Notes: generated by a model not told the origin, from the sequence alone. A stretch of 64,000 nt of DNA from Stegostoma tigrinum (GCF_030684315.1 NC_081376.1:18953018-19017017), one strand, 5' to 3'. Numbered from the stretch's first letter, positions 38,365 to 53,100 are shown. A program made the numbers and translations.

Positions 38365-38690
38365 TAGGCATAGACATGAATCCCTCCAGTGTGGAAGGAA
38401 GCCATTCAGTCCATTGAGTTCACATTGACCCTCCAAAGAGCATCACACTCAGACCCACTCCCCCTATATATGTAACCTTGCATTTCCGAGCATGCACATT
38501 GCTGAACACTATGGGCAATTTAGCATGGCCAATCCACCTAGCCTGCACATTTTGGACTGTGGGTGGAATCTGGAGCACCCGGAGGTTACGCACGCAGACA
38601 CAGGGAGAATGTGCAAACTCCACACAGACAGTCGCCCGAGGGTGGTGCTGCGGGGCAGAAGTGCTAGCCATTGAGCCACTGAGTCACCTT
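38365..38690 (-). mobile_element. HE1-type SINE
   Basis: CTCAGTGGCTCAATGGCTAGCAC head, GTGGAGTTTGCACATTCTCCC and GGATTGGCCATGCTAAATTGCCC. Confidence 0.85.
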
Positions 38691-39795
38691 TTATCCCTTC
38701 ACTACTCTGTCAAGACTTCCACTGTCATTTTTTGTCACTTTATCTCTTCTGCCTTCTGTCATTTACCTTCCCTTTTGTAATTTCTTCCCTCTCCTCTTTT
38801 CCTGTCTCAGTAATTGCTTAAAATCTGTTACATTTCTATCATTTTCCAGCTCTGATGAAAAGTCCTCAGCCTGAAATGTTGTCTTTGTTTTTATCTGCAC
38901 GGATGTTGACCTTCTCCCTATTTCAGGCAATTTAGTTCTTTATTTCAGATCACCAGTAGCCACAGTATTTTGCTTACAATACTAGAGAGGAAGGCCCATG
39001 AATTATTCTGACAGTTATAATTGGGGACATTTACCAAGGAAACATAAATATTTCTGTTATTCCTTGGAGTTGTAAAATGATGCCATGTATCATTTGACTT
39101 TCTTGAATGATCTTTATTTATTCATTTGCCTTCATGGACAGCTGAGGAGATTTAACAGAAGGCAATGATTACATTATTTCTGTTGTGCCTCGGTTCATGC
39201 AGGTTTTTCGAGCCAAATTGAACCAGGTGTCTGAAACACCCCGCCATGGAGGCTGTCAATGAATCTTTTTCATCTAAGTGTCTTATTGTGGAACTAGCTC
39301 CTGTCTTTAGGAGCTACAAAATGTGACTGACATTGGCCATATTTTCAGATGTGGCTCAAACAGAAAATGATACAGTGAGAATAGGCATTGAGCTAATTAT
39401 AAAGGCAAAATAGTGTGGATGCTAGGAACTGAAATTAAAAATAAATGCTGGAGAAAGTCAGCAGTGTCTATGGAGAGAGAGATGAAGCTAATGTGTCCAC
39501 TCCAATGTCGCTCTTCCTTGGAACAGTTCGACATGAAGTTCTTCCTACTCCCTGTATCTGTACTCTTTTAAAATTAATTACTTGGTTTGCCTTTCAAGCT
39601 ATTTTGTTCAGTAACTCAGACAGTGGAATCAGTATCCGGCCTCAACCTTTCATTCATTTTATAGCCTACAAGTTTTTAGAATCCACTTCATGTTCACCTG
39701 ATCACTGTTTTGTGACTTTCATCTGTTGTCTGTGCCGCTCTGTACATCTCTCAATGTGTCAAACCTTCAGCTGTGTATCTCAATAACACTGAGGC

Positions 39796-41154
39796 AGTGC
39801 TTCAGAACAAACAGAGTGTCTCTAAGACCTTGCAGACTCCTCAATCAATGCACACAGTGGTTAATTTACCCAGGCGCTTACTGTGTATGAGGAAAGGGCA
39901 ATACAGCACGAGTCTGCCGTCAGTGAACCAGGTCCTGATTTTATTTGAAGGTAACAAAAGTAAGAATTGAACTTTACAATTTCAACAACTGTTATGTAAC
40001 TATATGATTCTCTGGAAACTTAAAGTACTTCCCAGGTACTTGTAATTTGTGCTCGTTTGTCAAATTGTTCAGTCTGTTCCTCCCTTCATGGGCTGAGTGT
40101 CTTTGACATTGGAGGGTGAGCTGTATCCCAATGTTCCTCAAGGCCAGGGTTCAGTCAGGGCCATTGAATCCATACAGTATGGGAACAGGCCATTCAGCCC
40201 CATTAGTTCACACTGACTCTCCGAACAACATCCCATCCAGACCCACTCCCCACCCTATCCCTGCATTTCCCATGGGTAACACACCTAAGCCACAAATCCT
40301 TGAACACTTTGGGCAATTTAGCATAGCCAATCCACCTAACTGGCACATCTTTGGAGTATGGAAGGAAACTGGAGCAACCTGTAGACACAGGGAGAACGTG
40401 CAAACTCCACACAGACAGTTGCCCCAGGGTGAAATTGAACCTTAGGTCCCTGGTGCTAAGAGGCAACAGTGCTAACCATTGAGCCACTATGCTGCACCAG
40501 TCCTGCCAGGCTGGCCTCTTATACTTTCCTGGTTATTTTCTGGAACTTTCCAAGGTCTTGACTAATCAGAGGTCTCGAATGAATTGGTTTTATCAACTTG
40601 AAGTGGTGCCAATAGCTCTCAATGGTTCACTTAACAGTGAACTCTTTTGAACCTTATAAACTGATGTTTTCCCAGCCACCATCAGTTCTAAGGAAGGGTC
40701 ACCGGACCCGAAATGTTTACTGTGTTTTCTCCTCCACAGATGCTGCCAGACCTGCTGTGCTTTTCCAGCAACTTTGTTTTTGTTTCCTTTGATGAGCCTG
40801 CTCTTAGGTCTGGAAGTCTGATTTTGTCCCAGCATATACACCTGGTCTTTTGTCTTACTGAGGCACACCTGATCTAATGTTGTTTTTTGTCAGTAAGGGT
40901 TGAATTACCCATTCACATTTCCTAATGTGCTCTGAGGCCTCTCTAGTTTTCAATTACCTGATCAATTAGATGTTGCAAGGACATGTCTTTAGGAAGAATT
41001 GTTTCTTGTGTGTCAGTCTTGGCTCAGGCATTCCCAGCATACTTTACTTTTTGGCCAGTTTTTAATTCCCTGTCTATTTCAGTAGCTGTGTTTTTATTTC
41101 TGGCCGCCCTTCTCAATGGTTTCTATTTCACTTACACAGTCACAGACTGCTACA
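39796..41154 (-). repeat. 3' LTR (contains an HE1 SINE at about 40165-40497 and a PLE end at about 40665-40790)
   Basis: Colinear with 43808-44667 (about 84% over the last 184 bp by hand count). Begins TGTAGCAG on the minus strand; AATAAA on minus at 39940-39945. Confidence 0.85.
40165..40497 (-). mobile_element. HE1-type SINE inserted in the 3' LTR
   Basis: GCAGCATAGTGGCTCAATGGTTAGCACTG head; absent from the sister LTR. Confidence 0.85.
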
Positions 41155-41165
41155 TCACTTCTCTT
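41155..41165 (-). promoter_or_regulatory. Polypurine tract (PPT)
   Basis: AAGAGAAGTGA immediately precedes TGTAGCAG of the 3' LTR on the minus strand. Confidence 0.6.
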
Positions 41166-41540
41166 GAAGGAAAGGAGCATTAGTGAATATTGTTCACTGT
41201 AAAGGTACTAAGCTGAGATCGGTTTGTCATGGAGTAGATGTGTTGTAAAGGAAACCTATAGGATAAGCCATCGTGAATATGGATCAGGTATTTAAACAGG
41301 CATGTAATTAAAATGGTAAAGTGTGGCTTGTCATAATCACACTATGTTTACACACTTGCATACAGCTGTAAATTGTTGCAACATTGCATGTTACCATATC
41401 ACAGTATCCATAAGGGAAGTCACTCAATGGTTATACACAATGTAGAACTAAAAATTCTTAGCAATACAGGAATTAATGCATATGTATGTAAAAGAAAACT
41501 GAAAATAGCCAAGGAGTTCCATGTTCTATGGTTCTCTAAC

Positions 41541-42570
41541 TCAGGCATGTTCATTACTCATGGTGACTGTGTCATGCTGTTGGGATATCTGTTTTTTCCA
41601 TTTACTGATCTTAAGGGTTATAACTGTGACATTCGTTAGAGTAAATACAATTATGATGACATCTAGATCAGAGAGGAGATGGATCCGTGGATGGATCTGA
41701 ATATTTGTGCCCTAGTTCCGAAAGTCATCCCACCAATTAGTAAGCATAATCTTGTCGATTTCATACTGTAGTTTTTTTGGTACGCTGTACCACACAACGG
41801 AAAGTTTGGTGAGTGCTTGTTAATTGTATTAGAACCTCACAGGCTTTTTATCCCCATACCATACTTCTCAAAGAATTTCCAGACAGAATCTCTCAGTTCG
41901 TCAGTAATATTGATGAATGTCACTGGTCTTTGATGTATGTCAGTAAACTCTCTTAAGCCTACATATGAAGAATGTTAGGTTGAAATAAAAGGTGGTGTTT
42001 ATGATATTGCAGATGGAATTCCTATACTGATAGCTAACAAGTGAGGTTGTTACACAACATTCTTCCTGGCCCCATCCCCCATTGAATGAGACCGGTGTGA
42101 CACCAGTTTGCAGACTTCTATCACTGAGAGTGCGGTTTAAGTCACTGTTCATTAGGATATACAGGATAGGAGCAAACAATGGCATGTTCTGTTTGTTTGC
42201 ATTTACTCAGAATGGTGCCTATCAATGTCCCCTGTCTCTCCATAGCAAATGCAACAGTGTCATGGTAGCCCAGTCGAATATTTTTGTTAGAATTCCAATA
42301 TTTTCGACTTCAAAGGTCCTCAACCCAACTTTGCCACTAGGAATAATCGGAATCCCGAGTACTAAGCCCAGCAGCTCACTCAATGGTATCCTTGCAGTTG
42401 TTGTGATGCCACACATTGGTGAGCTGCTGTAACTGACAGCAGGAGATGTTGATGTGGGTTCTCTCCTGGAACAAATGTTTGAGGTGTTCATCACTAATCC
42501 AGGATGGTACCTTCCCTTGCCTAGCCTGCCAGAGGCCCTCTCTGCCCTGGGTGATCTGGTTCATTGTCTG
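41541..42570 (-). pseudogene. env: Frameshifted envelope glycoprotein, C-terminal half (class I/F-like)
   Basis: Stitched minus-strand frames: LWQARQGKVPSWISDEHLKHLF / LLGLVLGIPIIPSGKVGLRTFEVENIGI / TLIGTILSKCKQTEHAIVCSYPVY / CCVTTSLVSYQYRNSICNIINTTFYFNLT / FINITDELR / LQYEIDKIMLTNWWDDFRN*GTNIQIHPRIHLLSDLDVIIIVFTLTNVTVITLKISKWKK...stop. Has Cys pairs, N-glycosylation sequons, a Trp-rich juxtamembrane region, a hydrophobic segment with basic tail, and sits just upstream of PPT/LTR. Confidence 0.65.
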
Positions 42571-42849
42571 GGCGTGACCCTTAAGTCTCCTGAACTCGAT
42601 CTGTCAAACTTACCTGGTATCTTGCACATTCAGCCTGAGCTGGGTGTTGAGAGGATGGCTGCCCCACACAAATGCCAAGGTATAAATTGAGCATGCAAGA
42701 CCTTGGCACAGACCACAATGGAGCCTTATACCTGAAACTGTGACAAACAATGCACAAGCTAGGGAACTACACAAGATGCTGAGTTATCTCTTAAACAGAT
42801 TAACGGATCATGTAAACCTTTTAACATGATGGAGCAATCCCGAGCGAAA

Positions 42850-43775
42850 ACATGATATTATACCCTGAAACAAAATCTGTTTAAGAAATTGTCCAAATAG
42901 GCAAAATTTTGCAGCCAGTGTGGCATCAGGGTGAAAGTTCCCCAGTGCAGGACCTGTGGCAAGAAGCCCATAAAGAACTGGGAAAGAAAGCAGGAAATCT
43001 TACCCCAGTGATTGTTGCTGCCTGGAAGATTCTTGGGGTGAGGCAGCTGAGATCTGGTCATTCCGGAAAAAACCTACAAACGATGACAGAGAAGAATGCA
43101 AGGCTAGACCTCTTAAACTAAGATCAAAACAGAAAGTTGCAGGAAAACCCAATCCATATGGAACAGTTCCAGTCACAATTTGAAAGAGCCTATGGTAGCA
43201 AGAGGAGGGCTGTGGGGGATTGGGAAGCAGCCTTACTTTACGTTGACAGACAGAAACGAGAGTGTGGTGAGCTCCAAATGGCCATATTGGTCCTCAATGC
43301 CTGAAACACAGAGCAATTGGCATCAGGCCTCCACACAGAGCTTTGAAGTGCCAGGAACCAATGCAGATCCTCAAGAATTGGCACAGTGTGGAGCTGGAGG
43401 AACACAGCAGCTCAGACTGCATCAAAGGAGCAGGAAAGACAATGTTTCAGGTCGGGACCCTTCATCATAAGTCCTGAAAAAGGGTCCCAACCCAAAACAT
43501 TGACTTTCCTGCTCCTTTGGCACTGCCTGACCTGCTGCTTTCCTCCAGCCCTACACTGTACCGACCCTGGCTTTCGGCATCTGCAGTTCTTACAATCTCA
43601 CAGTCCCTCAAGAAACAGATAACCCGGAATGGGATAATGTGTGCCTTAGAGGTAGCAAGAGGCCCTGCACTGGCCCATCCACACCCAGTCTGCCACATCT
43701 TGCCACCTTCCTCCCAGGTGACTGCGCCTTCAGCGCCCAACCCCAATCTCTCACCTGACCTATACCCCGACTCAC
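42850..43775 (+). pseudogene. gag: Gag-like N-terminal fragment, inverted relative to LTRs/env
   Basis: WHQGESSPVQDLWQEAHKELGKKAGNL..., coiled-coil-like LQTMTEKNARLDLLN, and KCQEPMQILK/KQITRNGIMCAL (joined after removing the 43378-43605 insertion), then TAPSAPNPNLSPDLYPD with PSAP and LYPD motifs. Confidence 0.5.
43378..43605. mobile_element. Inverted-dimer Penelope-terminus element inserted in the gag-like region
   Basis: A minus copy followed by a plus copy of the PLE end; flanked by CCTCAAGAA at 43369-43377 and 43606-43614. Confidence 0.75.
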
Positions 43776-43786
43776 AGCTAACAAGC

Positions 43787-43804
43787 CTCTTAACAGCGAC
43801 ACCA
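43787..43804 (-). promoter_or_regulatory. Primer-binding-site-like sequence
   Basis: On the minus strand the LTR ends ...GACAACA, followed by TTT and TGGTGTCGCTGTTAAGAG. The priming tRNA is not assignable by eye. Confidence 0.5.
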
Positions 43805-43807
43805 AAA

Positions 43808-44667
43808 TGTTGTCCAGAACTGAGTGTCTCTAAGACCCTGTGGACTCCTTGACCAGGGCACACAGTATTGATTTAATCAGGCACCTTAGTATGTATCAGG
43901 AAAGGACTACACAGCACGAGCCTGCAGTGAGTGAATCGGGTCGCAATTTCATTTGAAGACAACAAAAGAGTTAAACTTGACAATTTTAACAACTGTATTT
44001 GTAACTATCTGATTCTTTAGAAACATAAAATACTTCCCAGATACTTATAACTCTTGCTGGTCTGTCAAATTGTGCAGTCTGGTCCGAGGGTGAACTGCTC
44101 TGGTCATTACTGTATCCCAATGTACCTCCCGGTAGGCTGGAGAATAGTGTCTAATTGAATCATGCTGGGCTGGATTCTTCCCCCTTCCTGGTTACCTTCT
44201 GGGAACTTTCCACGATTTTCCCAATCAGAGATATTGAAGTAATTGGTTTTATCACACTGAAATGCTGCTAATGGCTCTCGGTGGATTGCTTAACAGTGAA
44301 TCCTATGATGTGGCTGTTCTTCAGCCTGAAAGCCTGGTTTTGTCCCAGCACACACACATGAGCTTTTGCCTTACTGAGCCATGCCTGTCCCATGTTGTTT
44401 GTTTGTCAGGAAGGGCTGGATTGCCTATTCACAGTTCCTAATGTGTTCTGGTGCCTCTCTGGTTTTCAATTGTCTGGGTTTAGATCTTGCAAGGACTTGT
44501 CTTTAGGCAGAATTATCTCTTGTGTATCAGTCTTGGCTCAGGCATTCCCAGTATACTTTGCTTTTTGGTCAATTTTTACACCCTGTTCATTTCAGTAGCT
44601 GTGCTTGTATTTCTGACCTCCCTTCCCAATTGTTTTTACTTCACTTGTGCAGTCATATGCTGCTACA
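43808..44667 (-). repeat. 5' LTR
   Basis: TG...CA termini (TGTTG at 43808, CTACA ending at 44667); direct repeat of 39796-41154. Confidence 0.85.
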
Positions 44668-45087
44668 AGGCCCTGCACTCTCTGTTGAATTAGCAGATAA
44701 TCCAGTTTCCCTTTTGAATGTTAACTGAGTGATTTGCATTCTGTGTGCAATCTGAAACTTAATGATGCAAAGCAATACGAGCAGGAGTATAAGAAGGTCA
44801 ATGACAACCTCCAGATTGCTTTGCCATTCAATAAGATCATGGTTGATTTGAATGTAGACTTAACTTTACTCTTCACCTGCCCGCCCATAACCCTCGACTC
44901 CCTTGCCAATCAAAAATCTGTTGGAAACAGTCTTAAATATACTCACTGAGCCAGCCTCCAGTGCTGTCCGTGATAAAGATTACCAGAGACTGATAACCCT
45001 CTGAGAGAAGAGATTCCTCTTTAATCAGTCTTAAATGTGAGACACATGATAAAGACCTTTTTATTTTCCTGTATTTTCAATTGTGAA

Positions 45088-45197
45088 CTGAAACAGAGAG
45101 AGGATTGCTTTAAAAGCAAAGTATGCTGGGAATGCCTGAGCCAAGACTGACACACAAGTGATAATTTTGCCAAAAGACAAGTCCTTGCAAGATTTGA
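45088..45197 (+). repeat. Inverted fragment of the same LTR family
   Basis: AAAAGCAAAGTATGCTGGGAATGCCTGAGCCAAGACTGACACACAAG...AAAGACAAGTCCTTGCAAGAT is the reverse complement of about 44483-44597. Confidence 0.8.
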
Positions 45198-45805
45198 ATA
45201 GGATTACAGCACTTCTTAAAAGCAGGTTACCTGCTATGTAAGCGTTGCTTACACTGCTGTTTGTTCAAGCAGTAGTGGAGCTTTCATCGCAGACAAACTG
45301 GAATCAGGGCATGCCTTTAAAATGAGATTTGATCAGCTACACTTAGCTGATTGGTTTGTGGAATCATGCTCAGTTATCAGTGGCAGAGGCTTTCTGCCTG
45401 GCTGAGGTTACCACAAAAGACTTTCCTTCTGAACCACTCCTCCTACCTAAGGTGTGATGACCCTCAGGTTAAACTCCCACCAGGCTGACTAATGAGACAG
45501 CAATCCGATGGTTTGGTAAGGCAATGGCAATTTTACCTTTGACTTGACAACAACAACCTGATAAGCTGCCGGGTGGCCGAACAGATGTTGGCCAAAAGTC
45601 ATTGGACCTCCAGAAAAGAAGATGCTATTCTTCCCTTTGCTGCAAGCAAAAAACACCACAAGCCTGAGGAAAGCCAGTTTATTTTCACTCATTGGTTGCT
45701 GTAATCTGTGGCTTTTAAGCAATAGGTCAGAGGCCTTATAAGTGTGGTCGAAGCCTTCTATGCCACTGGCAAGCAAACTGCATTTATTTCAATGCAAGAG
45801 GCCTA

Positions 45806-47950: not shown

Positions 47951-48986
47951 TCTATGGCAGTAAGTGAAAGAAGGAAGGTCATGCAGCAGTACTCCTGACA
48001 AGCCAAGGGATTATCTCAGTGAACCCCATGCCAGCAACTGTGTCTGTTTGTATGTATTACGGAGTGAAAGGTTAAATGAAATGATAGTCATTTTAGAAGT
48101 AGTTAATACTGCTTTTAAATTCTCAAATGCCTCCTTGCATTGTTCTGCCCACTGAAATCTCATGTTCTTCTTTAACAAATCCATCAGTAGTGCCACTACA
48201 CTACTAAAGTTTGGGTCAAACTTCCAGAAGGATCCACTCAGTCCCAAAAAGCATAACAGTTCCCTCTTCAAGGATGGTGTTGGAAATTCCTCGATGGCCT
48301 TCGTCTTCATGTTCCTTGGCGTCATCCTTCCATGTCTGATGTTGCGTCCTAAGAAGGTCACTTCCACTTTTGTAAGTTCAATTTTTGCTAAATTTAGGGC
48401 CAGTTTTGCCTTACATAGTCTTTCAAACAGCTCTGCCAAATGAGCCATGTGATCTTTCCACAAACGGTGAAAGATCTCTAAGTCATCTAAATAGACAACA
48501 CCACAAGTCAATCCTGCTACAATTCTGTTCATAAGGCTTTGAAAAGTGGCTGGTGTGTTGTTCATTCCAAAGGGTATTCCCTTAAATTGATATAGTCCAT
48601 TTGGGATTACAAATGCAGAAACGTCTTTCGCTGTCTCTGGCCAAGATACTTCCCAGTAACCACAAAGTAAGTCCAACTTTGGGATGTACACACGCTCTTC
48701 CAGTCTTGGAATTGGGTATGAGTCTGAGTTAGTCACTGTGTTGATCTTCCAATAAGCCATGTAGAAACATTGAGTATCTTTAGGTTTGGAACCAATATTT
48801 TCAGCAAACTTCACTCACTTTGACTCAACTTGATGATGTCTTCTTGCAGCATCGCTTCCACTTCCAACTATACCTGTGCTTCTTTGAGAGGATTAAGCTT
48901 GTAGGCGTTTTGTTTTATTGAAACAGCATTCCCTATATCAACCTCATGTACTATAGTATCAATTCCCCTCATTCTATTTCTACATA

Positions 48987-50130
48987 CAGTCGTTTCTGCT
49001 ATAATGTGTGTTCCGACAACGTGAATTGCCTATAACACGACTGACGAATGGGGAACGCTATTTCTAAAACGTGAACTTGTGTTGTCTCCATTGTGTGGTT
49101 CCATTGGTGCATGAAGGAGTACGCATCACATGATCATTTCATGCAATGAAAAAGCAATCTGGGACCACCTTTCTCACCATAAAAGAGAAAGCCTCATCAA
49201 TTTATGAAGATCTAACAATAAAAAGCTGAAAATCCTGCAGAAGTGCCTGTTTTTAATGCTAGCGGTGGCTGGTTTGTTGGTTTTAAGAACTGTTATGCTT
49301 TTTATAATGTAAAGTTATGTGGTGAATCTGCCACTGCAGGTGAGGACCATGAGATGGTATTTCCTCCCATAGTAAAAAAAATTAATTGACGAAGAAGGCT
49401 ACAACTTAGATCAATTGTTCAATTTGGATGAGACAAGTTTATATGGAAGTGAACGCCATCAAGAATATACATTTCTATGAATGAAGCACACACTCCAGAC
49501 TTTCAGGTGGCAAAGGATCGTACAGCTGCGCTGCTTGATGCCAATACCAGTGGAGACTTAAAGCTTAAGTCTGTGGTGGTGTATCATTCTATAAATTCCC
49601 ATGAACCTTGAAAGGTTATCTTAAGTGTACTCCAGGCATCTACTTTAGATCAAGCAAAAGAGGTTTTTTAAGGGAAGGTGTTAAATTTACTTTTATTTCA
49701 TTATTAGATATGAACTAAACATTTATTCAAATTGTGCTATCCTTTGTGTTAGGCTTTTGAGCGACCTTTGCGTGATTTTGAGTTTTTTTTTGGTGGCCTG
49801 CCCCTCGCACTGTTTTTCCTTTAGGTCTGTTATTTCAATGATAACAAGGTGTGGAGCTGGATGAACACAGCAGGCCAAGCAGCATCAGAGGAGCAGGAAG
49901 GCTGACATTTCAGCCTAGACCCTTTCTGAAGAAGGGTCTAGGCCCAAAACATCAGCTTTCCTGCTCCTCTGATGCTGCTTGGCCTGCTGGGTTCATCCAG
50001 CTCTACACCTTGTTATCTCAGATTCTCCAGCATCAGTAGTTCCTAGTATCTCTGTTATTTCTATTGCACGATTTTCTATGACACAATGTTGTACAGGAAT
50101 GTAACTATCACACTACAGCAGAACCAACTG
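48987..50130 (+). mobile_element. Tigger/pogo-type DNA transposon (internally deleted)
   Basis: TIRs CAGTCGTTTCTGCTATAATGTG / CACACTACAGCAGAACCAACTG, TA at 48985-86 and 50131-32, and transposase remnants FNASGGWFVGFK, GESA, LFNLDETSL and KDR...ANTSGDLKLK. Confidence 0.9.
49840..50050. mobile_element. Inverted-dimer Penelope-terminus element inside the Tigger
   Basis: Near-palindromic pair of PLE ends; flanked by TCTGTTATTTC at 49826 and 50051. Confidence 0.8.
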
Positions 50131-53100
50131 TACATCCTCATAGTGCTGCAACAAGCCTTTTAATTCAGTTATCTGCTCCTGAGACAGATAGCTTACTATC
50201 CTACCCCATTTTTTAAGGATTTCCTCATTATTTAATTTATTCTGAAGCACATCAAAATCCACATTATCTGGATTTGATTCCTCATTCTGAGTGGAAAATA
50301 TCTAATACCCATTTCTACAGTTCCCTTTCCCTGTCATAGTAAGTTTTCGGCATGTTCACATGACATACCTGATAAAAGATTTTTCCTAAGTGGCATCTTT
50401 ACCAGATAATTCACCTGACTTAACTTCTTTTCAATCTGTTAGGGACAACTAAACCTTGCTTTGAAGGGTTCTTCTACTTTATCCCCAGGGGCAAATGTAC
50501 AAATTTTAGAATTCTCATTTGCTTCTTGCTTCATTAGATGCTATCAAATGTTGTCTAGCTAATTCACCTGCTCTGTTTAATCTTTCCGTCACCTCAAACA
50601 CATAATCCTCACGGTCTCTGACTTCAGACCTGTCAACTTTTCCATAATTTTAAAGTCCCTCTTACTTCACGTCCGATTATCAGTTCAAATGGAGTAAACT
50701 GTGGTGATATATTTGTAGCATCTCTAACAGCAAGCAATATAAATGAGATACTTTTATCCCCATCATTTGGGTAATCCTGGCAAAAAGCCATCAGCATGGT
50801 CTTAAGGGTCCAATTCCACCTTTCCATTGCTCCCTGGGATTCAGGATGGTACACACTGAACTATCCATGACCTTGTTAAATAATTTGGCAGCAAAAATTG
50901 ACCCTTGGTCTGATTGAATCTCCCTGGGTTATCCATATGGATAAAGAAAGCAAGCAACTCCTCCATAACCCTTTTTACATTGACGTTCCAAAATGGAACT
51001 GGCTCTGGATATCTGATAGACACATCCATTGTGGTTAGCAAATACTGGCTCCCATGATTGGTTTCAGAGAGGAGGCCTATATATTCAACCATAACCCGCA
51101 TGAATGGTTCTTCAAATATGGGAATTGGCATCAAAGGCACTGGTTTTATTACTGCCTGTAGCTTTCCTACCATTTGACTAGTATGACAGGTACAGCAAAA
51201 TTCAATAACATCTTCATGTAGTCCAGGCCAATAGAAATGCTTCGGTATTTTAGTTTAAGTCTTCCACAGCCCTGAGTGACCTCCTACAGGTAATTTGCGT
51301 GCTACTCACAATGCGTCCTGTCTGTACACTACCAGCAACACAATCTGGTGAACTTCAGTCCACTTCTCCTCTGCACTAACCTGCAAAGGTCTCCATTTTT
51401 GCCTGAGGATTCTAACTTTAAGGTAATAACATTTCGGAATACATTCTGATTCCTTTTCAAAGTAAGCCTTATGATATAACTCTTTTATTGTCTCACCTTT
51501 TTGTTGTAAGCGCTGTCTGATCTTCTACCTATTTGTTTAGGGGTTTCCTTTGCTATTTCATCAAACAGGGTGTCAGATAACGGAACCTCAACTCCATCTT
51601 CATCTTTCTCTTTGATTTTCCTCTCTTGCTTTAACTATGACAGTGGGATCTTGTTACCACACAGTCTGAAAAAATTCCAAGGTAGTGTAACTCCTCAATT
51701 CCCTGGTTTTCCTCCAACTTTTCCACTCCAAGATGTATCACTCCCACCTTTGATCCTGCTAGGCTGTTGCCATGAAGAAACTGTATTCCTGGAATTGACA
51801 CTCTTTCAGTTACTCCCCCTGTCACTTCCTCAGTCTCGATTGAACTTTCTAGCCCTATTTTACACAGGGGAGCACTAAATCTCTCTCTATTTATTCCACA
51901 GACTATCACTCTCTCGGGTAACATTTCAAAAGGAGTGCAAATACTTTCATATCAGAGACTGACCAGCTCCCGTATCTCTCAATATTTTAACTTAATTACC
52001 TTCTCTTTGTGTTCTTCCTGCATAAACCTTACCTACAGAGGTGAAGCCTTTGAAGAGATTGGGCACTGTCTCACTACCCAACCCGTCACTAAGCTGTGCA
52101 CTCTCCTGCAGCTTCTCAATGTCTCTTGGGATTTCCTCCACAATCTCTACCAATCCCATTGGTTTAACCACTTTTACCACATCCTTTTCCCAATGCCTCT
52201 CTTAAACCACCAGCACCGTGACTTTGTGTCCCTCTCTATTACAGTGGAAACACCTGAGGCCTTTCATCTCATTTCAACCCTCTTGGATTTGTTTTTCACA
52301 CGTAGTAAATTGTTCCCAATGTGATCTACTTCTTGTTTCTCATTGAAGGATCTCCCTTTTTCCCAATTTCTATCCCTCACGGAATGGAATTGCTGTAAGA
52401 AGCTAAACTTCGATTTATGCGCTAATGCATATGCATCCACCATCTCCGCAGCTCTTCTTAATTTGGTTACTTTCTGTTCCTCAACATGAGTTCTTATTAT
52501 TTCTAGAGATTAATCCAGCAGAATAATTTCTCTAAGATCCTCGTATGTCTTTTCTATCATTAATGTTCTCACCCATCCATCCAAGTTGCTATGTTTAATC
52601 CTCTCAAACTCGACATAAATCTGACTTGATTCCTTCCTTATATTTATGAACCGTTATCTATAAGCTTCTGGTGCCAATTTGTAGGCAATCAAAATAGCCT
52701 GTTTTATTGCCTTATATTCTCTTGACACCTCATCTGACAGCACTGCAAACATCTCACTAGCCATGTCTACCAATATGTTCTGAATTATGCTTACCCACAT
52801 GTCTTCTGGCCACTTCAACCGTTTAGCCAATTTCTCAAAGGAAACGAAAAAGGCTTTGATATCTTTATCATCGAATTTTGATAGTGTTTTGACATATTTA
52901 TATCTATCCCTATCAGGTCTTTGTTACAATGGATCTGCTCATCATCACTCTCTTCCTCACTAACCATATCTTCTACCTTCATTTCCATCATTTTAAGTCA
53001 GCTAATCCACTAAATTTGCAACTTCTGAAGCCCAAAATCTCTCTCTTTCTCCCTTTCTTCTCTTTCATTTTCCCTTTCTTCTCTCTCTTTTTCTTTTTGT

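Follow-up and report, generated by a model that had tools for sequence, protein, structure and literature searches.

What kind of retrovirus left the element, bounded by long terminal repeats (LTRs), that occupies positions 39796-44667 of a 64,000-nt stretch of Stegostoma tigrinum DNA (GCF_030684315.1 NC_081376.1:18953018-19017017; below, the window), and what sort of envelope did that virus carry? A first-pass annotation had proposed an old, pol-deleted relative of the lokiretroviruses whose envelope resembles the fusion (F) proteins of paramyxoviruses and baculoviruses. Our analysis makes it rather probable that the element is a dead, inverted and deleted provirus, likely of the snakehead retrovirus (SnRV) group (clade Huo), with a predicted F-type class I envelope (Env), and that an intact relative of its env on contig C6 is likely a domesticated gene.

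The env remnant is broken and lies on the minus strand at 41541-42578, spanning the late part of heptad repeat 1 (HR1), Cys-rich beta domains, HR2, a WW motif, the transmembrane segment and the tail. It matches a profile built from 36 intact relatives in four pieces distributed over three frames (best 27.2 bits, E 7.5e-10), two of the four being interrupted by stop codons, and the reversed window, taken as a control, gave no match to the env profile. About 1 kb of frameshifted glycoprotein-like sequence had been described some 380 bp before the 3' LTR, in agreement with this match and with the 387 nt that we count between the end of the remnant and that LTR. Because profile coverage corresponds to residues ~361-743 only of P0001, the intact protein encoded on C6, the signal peptide, surface subunit (SU), furin site and fusion peptide have been lost from the window; one of four stretches examined (L027) is a family copy that keeps a furin-like site and a fusion peptide. 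The remnant shares 74% nucleotide identity with L021; against the profile, the frame of this copy reaches 149 bits. In the genome searched (3.2 Gb, 835 contigs), the env remnant has at least 44 DNA matches (68-90% identity), the window LTR at least 49, and a 151-aa fragment of L021 at least 144 protein matches. The window copy, taken alone, is one of more than 100 decayed copies.

Through its profile link to intact relatives, the window remnant is predicted to be of the F type. The fold was modelled on P0001 (AlphaFold, mean pLDDT 57.9, pTM 0.40). Foldseek returned paramyxovirus and pneumovirus F as the best match of this model (E 2e-10), with 259 PDB matches at E<=0.001 that include the F proteins of respiratory syncytial virus, human parainfluenza virus 3, henipavirus, Newcastle disease virus and human metapneumovirus; structural alignments to F gave Z 11.8 (rmsd, or root-mean-square deviation, 8.8; 295 residues aligned) and Z 11.6 (rmsd 5.4; 287 aligned). 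Baculovirus F was among the matches in BFVD, as were the Env proteins of walleye epsilonretroviruses and of foamy viruses, and the likeness to paramyxovirus and baculovirus F claimed at first pass is thus borne out on an intact relative. In the Atlas, the first matches were Fusion_gly clusters at 0.94 (21% Fusion_gly in the first cluster, 88% in the second), and the best PDB sequence match of the env profile was the transmembrane (TM) subunit of foamy Env (E 0.027). A regular-expression search of P0001 found neither CKS-17 nor CX6CC, the gamma-type signatures of which CKS-17/CX6CC had already been noted as lacking from the stretch translated at first pass. With phmmer, P0001 gave 39 matches over 1.84 billion representatives; the hosts among the 10 that were looked up are Pelodytes, Xenopus, Mantella (multi-copy), Bombina, the coelacanth, Mustelus and Rhinoraja.

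Two points weigh against the F-type assignment: the confidence of the fold is moderate, the model being of the C6 paralogue rather than of the window remnant, and Pfam found no fusion family in P0001 and 24 relatives, Fusion_gly matching no member. Pfam also gave nothing relevant on 14 natural stop-free fragments, and a word-based search for homologues of the 151-aa L021 fragment yielded 0 of 52 candidates. A scan of the shark's own genome with the PF00523 profile gave 0 matches and was uninformative, because its control was silent too.

The BFVD matches of P0001 include models of Env from walleye epidermal hyperplasia virus 1 (WEHV-1) and walleye dermal sarcoma virus (WDSV), at E 1e-9 and 4e-7, which suggests that fish retroviruses may have F-like cores more widely.

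The intact env gene on contig C6

The first-pass annotation had advised a search for co-opted env paralogues, and an intact, conserved gene was indeed found at G000:C6:85878946-85881210 (+), equivalent to L061:4946-7210. Of the 144 protein matches it is the single one lying in a long open frame (764 aa, the next longest being 261 aa), and of the 2 matches that 74 candidates yielded, no other is intact. The encoded 754-aa protein, P0001, has an N-terminal hydrophobic segment, RKRR at 287-290, a fusion-peptide-like stretch, heptads, a Cys-rich region, WW and a transmembrane segment near 703. A 30-kb stretch around the gene contained no window-family LTR, gag or pol match and no flanking direct-repeat pair; the two tandem-like repeats seen in L062 are 10 kb upstream of it. 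A pyrimidine tract and an AG, 2 nt before the ATG, form a putative splice acceptor at which the transcript is predicted to be spliced.

P0001 is 92% identical to GCC29952.1 of Chiloscyllium punctatum, 84% to XP_072333160.1 of Scyliorhinus torazame and 85% to XP_067889054.1 of Heterodontus francisci, all three named uncharacterized or hypothetical. Across these three shark orders the TM ectodomain is 89-94% identical with no internal gaps, and 19 of 21 Cys are kept in the 4 proteins. At the DNA level, contigs of an organism A differ in ORF-only pieces (ORF, open reading frame) at 9/313 and 21/776 positions with 0 gaps, as against 23/329, 29/623 and 27/621 in flank-only pieces, two of which contain gaps. 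Contigs of an organism B show 179/2047 differences and 0 gaps over the ORF; their pieces of mostly flanking sequence have 85/867 differences with 28 gap letters and 88/585 with 8. The flanks match in both organisms, and the contrast between ORF and flanks has the pattern of purifying selection at what appears to be an orthologous locus. With only ~30% identity to the window env, the C6 protein is a distant paralogue and does not derive from the window insertion.

Its intact frame, its single copy, the lack of proviral surroundings and its conservation across three shark orders make a domesticated (captured) envelope gene the likely reading. As the furin site, fusion peptide and transmembrane segment are all conserved, a membrane-anchored fusogen is favoured, and membrane fusion at the cell surface is a plausible job for the protein, albeit one we propose tentatively; its main rival, receptor interference in the service of antiviral defence, seems possible but somewhat less probable. 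The literature searched holds no description of the gene, although a 2020 survey of retroviral gene co-option and preprint supplements may list it.

The front of SU may contain an IgV-like domain (P0001 residues ~83-160; L061:5200-5430). This hint comes from weak antibody V-domain matches, the only ones that phmmer found for P0001 in the PDB (E 0.17-0.5), from a UniRef label and from a V-set match in P0007 (E 0.045); the fold model of the SU front (pLDDT 37) is unusable. Long F-type env proteins that occur as single members in Mustelus (P0011), Rhinoraja (P0015), Latimeria (P0033) and Pelodytes (P0005) are possible further captures.

Lineage of the family

Remnants of pol occur in the env-bearing loci L064, L068 and L075. 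The last of these holds reverse transcriptase (RT), tether, RNase H and integrase, with matches to RT_RNaseH_2 (E 1e-5) and RNase_H (E 1e-3) that both fall under the curated cut-offs, and the protein P0061 carries tether and RNase H as well. Among relatives with the window LTR type, pol is represented only by the integrase of L031 (env 75% identical) and the RT start of L071; across L064, L068, L075, L071 and L031 the layout is LTR-gag-pro-pol-env-LTR. The advice to recover full-length copies through the window LTR was followed, and no full-length copy bearing RT was among those recovered, pol being found in 0/20 env loci and 0/8 LTR-adjacent stretches. The 0/20 figure hints that the pol-less env loci could be non-autonomous gag-env families copied in trans.

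Short env-bearing, pol-less elements (L084, L089, L090, L093, L095 and L100) measure 3.4-5.4 kb between LTR starts. About 15 LTR matches with near-identical scores recur at 40-80 kb spacing in G000:C4:12860046-13754389, an array consistent with a large tandem segmental duplication.

Comparison of the RT remnants with Dataset S3 of Wang and Han (PMC7947760) was made by eye, with hand counts over one 50-column block. The shark RT blocks (KPDGSWRLTIDY-like, APTVAT, LDISNGFW, CQYKF.FTF and KINPKK) follow the SnRV row, and L071 reads APTVAT, like the PTVAST block of SnRV. By hand count, L075 agrees with SnRV in 29, with WDSV in 27 and with Loki-Lch in 21 of 49 columns; for L079 the values are SnRV 31, WDSV 27, Loki-Lch 23, feline foamy virus (FFV) 23 and human endogenous retrovirus L (HERV-L) 22 of 50. 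Judging from these remnants, the env family probably belongs near SnRV (clade Huo), relatives of which are known as endogenous retroviruses (ERVs) of the elephant shark (PMC4422223), and an F-type envelope would thereby be tied to an SnRV-like RT.

The lokiretroviral ancestry put forward at first pass, under which the element would be a pol-deleted lokiretrovirus and the first in cartilaginous fish, fared worse, and we leave it only a slim chance. It fits an Env of F type that has a furin site, a fusion peptide, a coiled coil and a transmembrane segment, the occurrence of env relatives in lokiretrovirus hosts (frogs and the coelacanth), the dual RNase H of L075 and the integrase, which by eye is loki/CGIN1-like, a CGIN1-like integrase being a lokiretroviral trait in Wang and Han (PMC7947760). 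However, the LPQG site of RT has Q in 5 of 6 distinct shark loci and E in the sixth, with PFG in none, whereas PFG stands in all 24 lokiretroviral rows (and also in an unrelated Gypsy RT of the window). The VPLSRWPM-type/MSGWPV block of lokiretroviruses is absent from the shark RT remnants, and the hand-counted identity to Loki-Lch is below that to SnRV and WDSV. All retroviruses have a dual RNase H, and an F-like Env is by itself no lokiretroviral marker, because foamy Env is F-like too (PMC11468914) and walleye epsilonretrovirus Env appears among the fold matches.

Those walleye matches would suit a fish retrovirus that is epsilon-like (class I, clade Mu) and has an Env of F-like type, as would a 4-bp target-site duplication (TSD) like that of ERV1, the zinc-knuckle and GPY/F-like remnants seen in relatives (read-through; P0061), and the position of WDSV as a close second to SnRV in the RT core count. 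Such an origin is nevertheless unlikely: at the N-terminal RT block KPDGSWRLTIDY, P0061 agrees fully with SnRV and L078/L068 come close to it, in contrast to WDSV; Env has ~750 aa, against 1150-1300 in the walleye viruses; and zinc knuckle and GPY/F may occur in SnRV/Ovex1-related ERVs too.

We consider it very improbable that the element is foamy-like (spumaviral, clade Tu), even though foamy viruses provide both the best PDB match of RT and the best PDB sequence match of the env profile, and a 4-bp TSD agrees with the foamy value. The relatives keep a zinc-knuckle remnant in gag, a feature not known from foamy Gag; the 754-aa Env begins with an N-terminal signal peptide of the cleaved type, against a long leader peptide and ~980 aa; and FFV reaches only 23/50 in the hand count, against 31 for SnRV. 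Accessory genes between env and the 3' LTR are a feature of Spumaretrovirinae, and the 387-nt gap is too short to hold them.

Equally improbable, to our mind, is a separate deep lineage or mosaic, outside the SnRV clade, that combines an SnRV-like RT, a loki-like integrase and an F-type Env. The signals of RT, integrase and Env do disagree, the closest database Pol is an unclassified frog protein with 36% identity, and domain shuffling has been described for retroviruses (PMC7947760); yet the likeness in integrase may be ancestral and common to SnRV itself, and an SnRV-related lineage has already been reported in a chimaera.

Placement near SnRV, which we prefer, has several observations against it. 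It rests on comparison by eye and hand counts rather than on a tree, and SnRV is ahead of WDSV by no more than 2-4 columns of the core block. The RT data come from relatives, the window copy having no RT: L075 and L068 are env-linked but ~38% protein identity away, L071 is leader-linked and offers the RT start only, and loci L077-L081 (L079 included) are at most putatively env-linked. The best PDB match of RT is foamy, at 68.7 bits, ahead of murine leukemia virus at 58.4 (SnRV and lokiretroviruses are not in the PDB). Among 1308 candidates, one database Pol reached E<=1e-25, the 36%-identical frog protein, which is labelled NYNRIN-like; its integrase is by eye much like the Loki-Xla row, in a comparison that the SnRV and CGIN1 rows lay outside. 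The 4-bp TSD fits ERV1, unlike the 5 bp of ERV3/ERV4 (PMC4299795). Finally, SnRV Env was not found by name among the phmmer, BFVD fold or viral-contig matches. A scan of viral contigs for SnRV-like Pol also gave nothing.

For the origin of retroviral Env, Wang and Han set out four scenarios (PMC7947760); with F-type Env in lokiretroviruses, foamy viruses and a basal orthoretroviral lineage, an F-type ancestor is favoured. A broader proposal, which we advance with some reserve, is that an F-fold env was captured before the galeomorph orders split and still serves as a host membrane-fusion or antiviral protein, which would make it one of the oldest captured envelopes and one of non-gamma type, and that the ancestral retroviral envelope was F-type. 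These orders split roughly 200 million years ago. Co-opted endogenous foamy viruses are reportedly present in geckos, and may precede any claim to a first F-type capture.

Anatomy and rearrangement of the window element

The provirus lies on the minus strand, its 5' end at 44667 and its 3' end at 39796. The 5' LTR (43808-44667, minus strand) has 860 nt and runs TG..CA; the 3' LTR (39796-41154, minus strand) runs TG..CT, its terminal base being mutated so that the left end reads AG on the plus strand, and carries two later insertions, a 143-nt repeat (40642-40784) and a SINE-like (short interspersed element) repeat (40165-40500, minus strand) with a further copy at 38377-38680. These are the paired LTRs of about 860 bp, with their mutated left end, that had been recognized from the outset. 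With both insertions removed, 685 of 842 aligned non-gap columns are identical (81.4%, within the 80-85% given earlier for an old element; Kimura two-parameter (K2P) distance 0.218). This distance corresponds to ~50 million years (My) at a mammalian rate. With the shark rate that PMC4422223 assumes it becomes ~495 My, an implausible value, and we therefore claim no insertion date.

The 4-bp TSD reported before, AGGC, is present exactly at 44668-44671 on the 5' side and at 39792-39795 on the 3' side. To survey its length in the family we took 20 other LTRs, one of which was excluded (3' end beyond the stretch). Over 4 nt, the flanks of 8 of the remaining 19 differed at one position or none (2 were exact; binomial P 2e-6); over 5 or 6 nt, none of the 19 agreed this closely, meaning that the family TSD is 4 bp. 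A primer-binding-site-like (PBS-like) stretch at 43787-43804 (minus strand) starts with TGG, 4 nt past the 5' LTR (43804), with similar sites after the LTR in relatives; the window contains no tRNA gene. The polypurine tract (41155-41165, minus strand) adjoins the 3' LTR and is worn, relatives having a cleaner one; both signals had been picked out at first pass. The element is pol-deleted, as was then thought: tblastn with an intact Pol found nothing inside it.

What the first-pass annotation had missed is an inverted segment at 42574-~43778 (plus strand), homologous to the leader and the 5' part of gag of relatives. It is ~70% identical in nucleotides to L071, where it extends into gag, protease and the RT start. 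The gag assignment is by position, with a coiled-coil-like remnant, and Pfam gave no match for this gag in the minus-strand frames and natural stop-free fragments scanned. Inside the segment lies a 183-nt palindromic short repeat (43380-43562) that is abundant in the genome. Comparison with L084 places a 5-nt microhomology (42574-42578, minus strand) at the joint with env, and the other joint falls ~25-30 nt beyond the PBS start. Of 11 loci with both the leader/gag segment and env, 9 have the two in one orientation; the segment is opposite to env in the window, in L029 (with a different far breakpoint) and in L082/L083, which are 14 kb apart and perhaps two elements.

L029, L031, L039 and L071, which have the window LTR type, are likewise inverted internally close to the 5' LTR, at breakpoints that differ.

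The history of the element can be put as follows. A retrovirus integrated with a 4-bp duplication and TG..CA LTRs. Because relatives hold gag, protease, RT, tether, RNase H, integrase and an env of full length in which furin site and fusion peptide are kept, the parent was a complete retrovirus; judging from fold and motifs, it would have entered cells by the F mechanism, i.e., furin cleavage, exposure of a fusion peptide and formation of an HR1/HR2 six-helix bundle. The window copy has lost most of gag, all of pol and the front half of env, and its leader/gag part is flipped; the 5-nt microhomology at one joint suggests a microhomology-mediated rearrangement, most likely after integration. 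Given its stops, frameshifts and missing signal peptide, the window copy is presumably inert and would yield no functional product.

Two further features lie outside the element. An 87-nt piece of the window LTR (45112-45198, plus strand) sits 445 nt away in the opposite orientation and is 92% identical to the 5' LTR. At 48095-51326 (minus strand) there is a decayed Gypsy element whose RT resembles the Gmr1 row by eye and whose integrase precedes RT, which we take to be the Gmr1-type domain order.

Comparison with known retroviruses and captured envelopes

With the SnRV clade (clade Huo; PMC12193657, PMC6001957, PMC4422223) the shark family has in common RT motifs and blocks, compared by eye, and a gag-pro-pol-env order that includes tether and RNase H. 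Cartilaginous-fish hosts are already on record for this clade, namely CmiERV lineage I in the elephant shark (PMC4422223). The portions of the literature searched describe no F-fold Env for the clade, whereas one is predicted for the shark family; in addition, the shark element has no room for accessory ORFs after env, and its window copy is inverted and pol-less.

The Env of lokiretroviruses is F-like and comprises a signal peptide, an RXKR site, a fusion peptide, a coiled coil and a transmembrane segment (PMC7947760), as in the shark family; the dual RNase H is common to both, and the shark integrase looks CGIN1-like by eye. They differ in that shark RT is devoid of the PFG site and the VPLSRWPM-type block, and shark Env of a match to Pfam PF00523; lokiretroviruses were found in 0/3 chondrichthyan genomes. 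Foamy Env (PMC11468914; PDB 8rm1) has an F-like core (subclass Ib) and its TM subunit gives a weak sequence match to shark Env, but the latter is shorter and begins with an N-terminal signal peptide, the shark RT is nearer to SnRV, and there is no accessory region.

The C6 gene itself is best set beside syncytins, percomORF, HEMO and the chondrichthyan syncytin-like Envs (10.64898/2026.05.06.723177), which like it are single-copy intact env genes, lack proviral context and are conserved between species. Those captures are gamma-type, with an immunosuppressive domain (ISD) and CX6-7CC, whereas the C6 gene has neither and is predicted to be F-type. The chondrichthyan screen started from syncytin queries and required ISD and CX6-7CC (10.64898/2026.05.06.723177), so that the C6 gene would be excluded by it; a term search of this preprint gave no mention of Chiloscyllium, Scyliorhinus, Heterodontus, or foamy or paramyxo- terms. 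The C6 gene is an intact, conserved and unannotated shark gene that gamma-type motif screens would pass over, and it offers a way to test whether cell fusion or virus restriction in vertebrates makes use of a fusogen of F fold. The question reaches the egg-laying sharks sampled and, if the gene is present there, placental sharks, for which the 2026 screen gave no syncytin-like candidate (10.64898/2026.05.06.723177). The conservation reported in that preprint covers two Squalus species, while that of the C6 gene extends over three orders.

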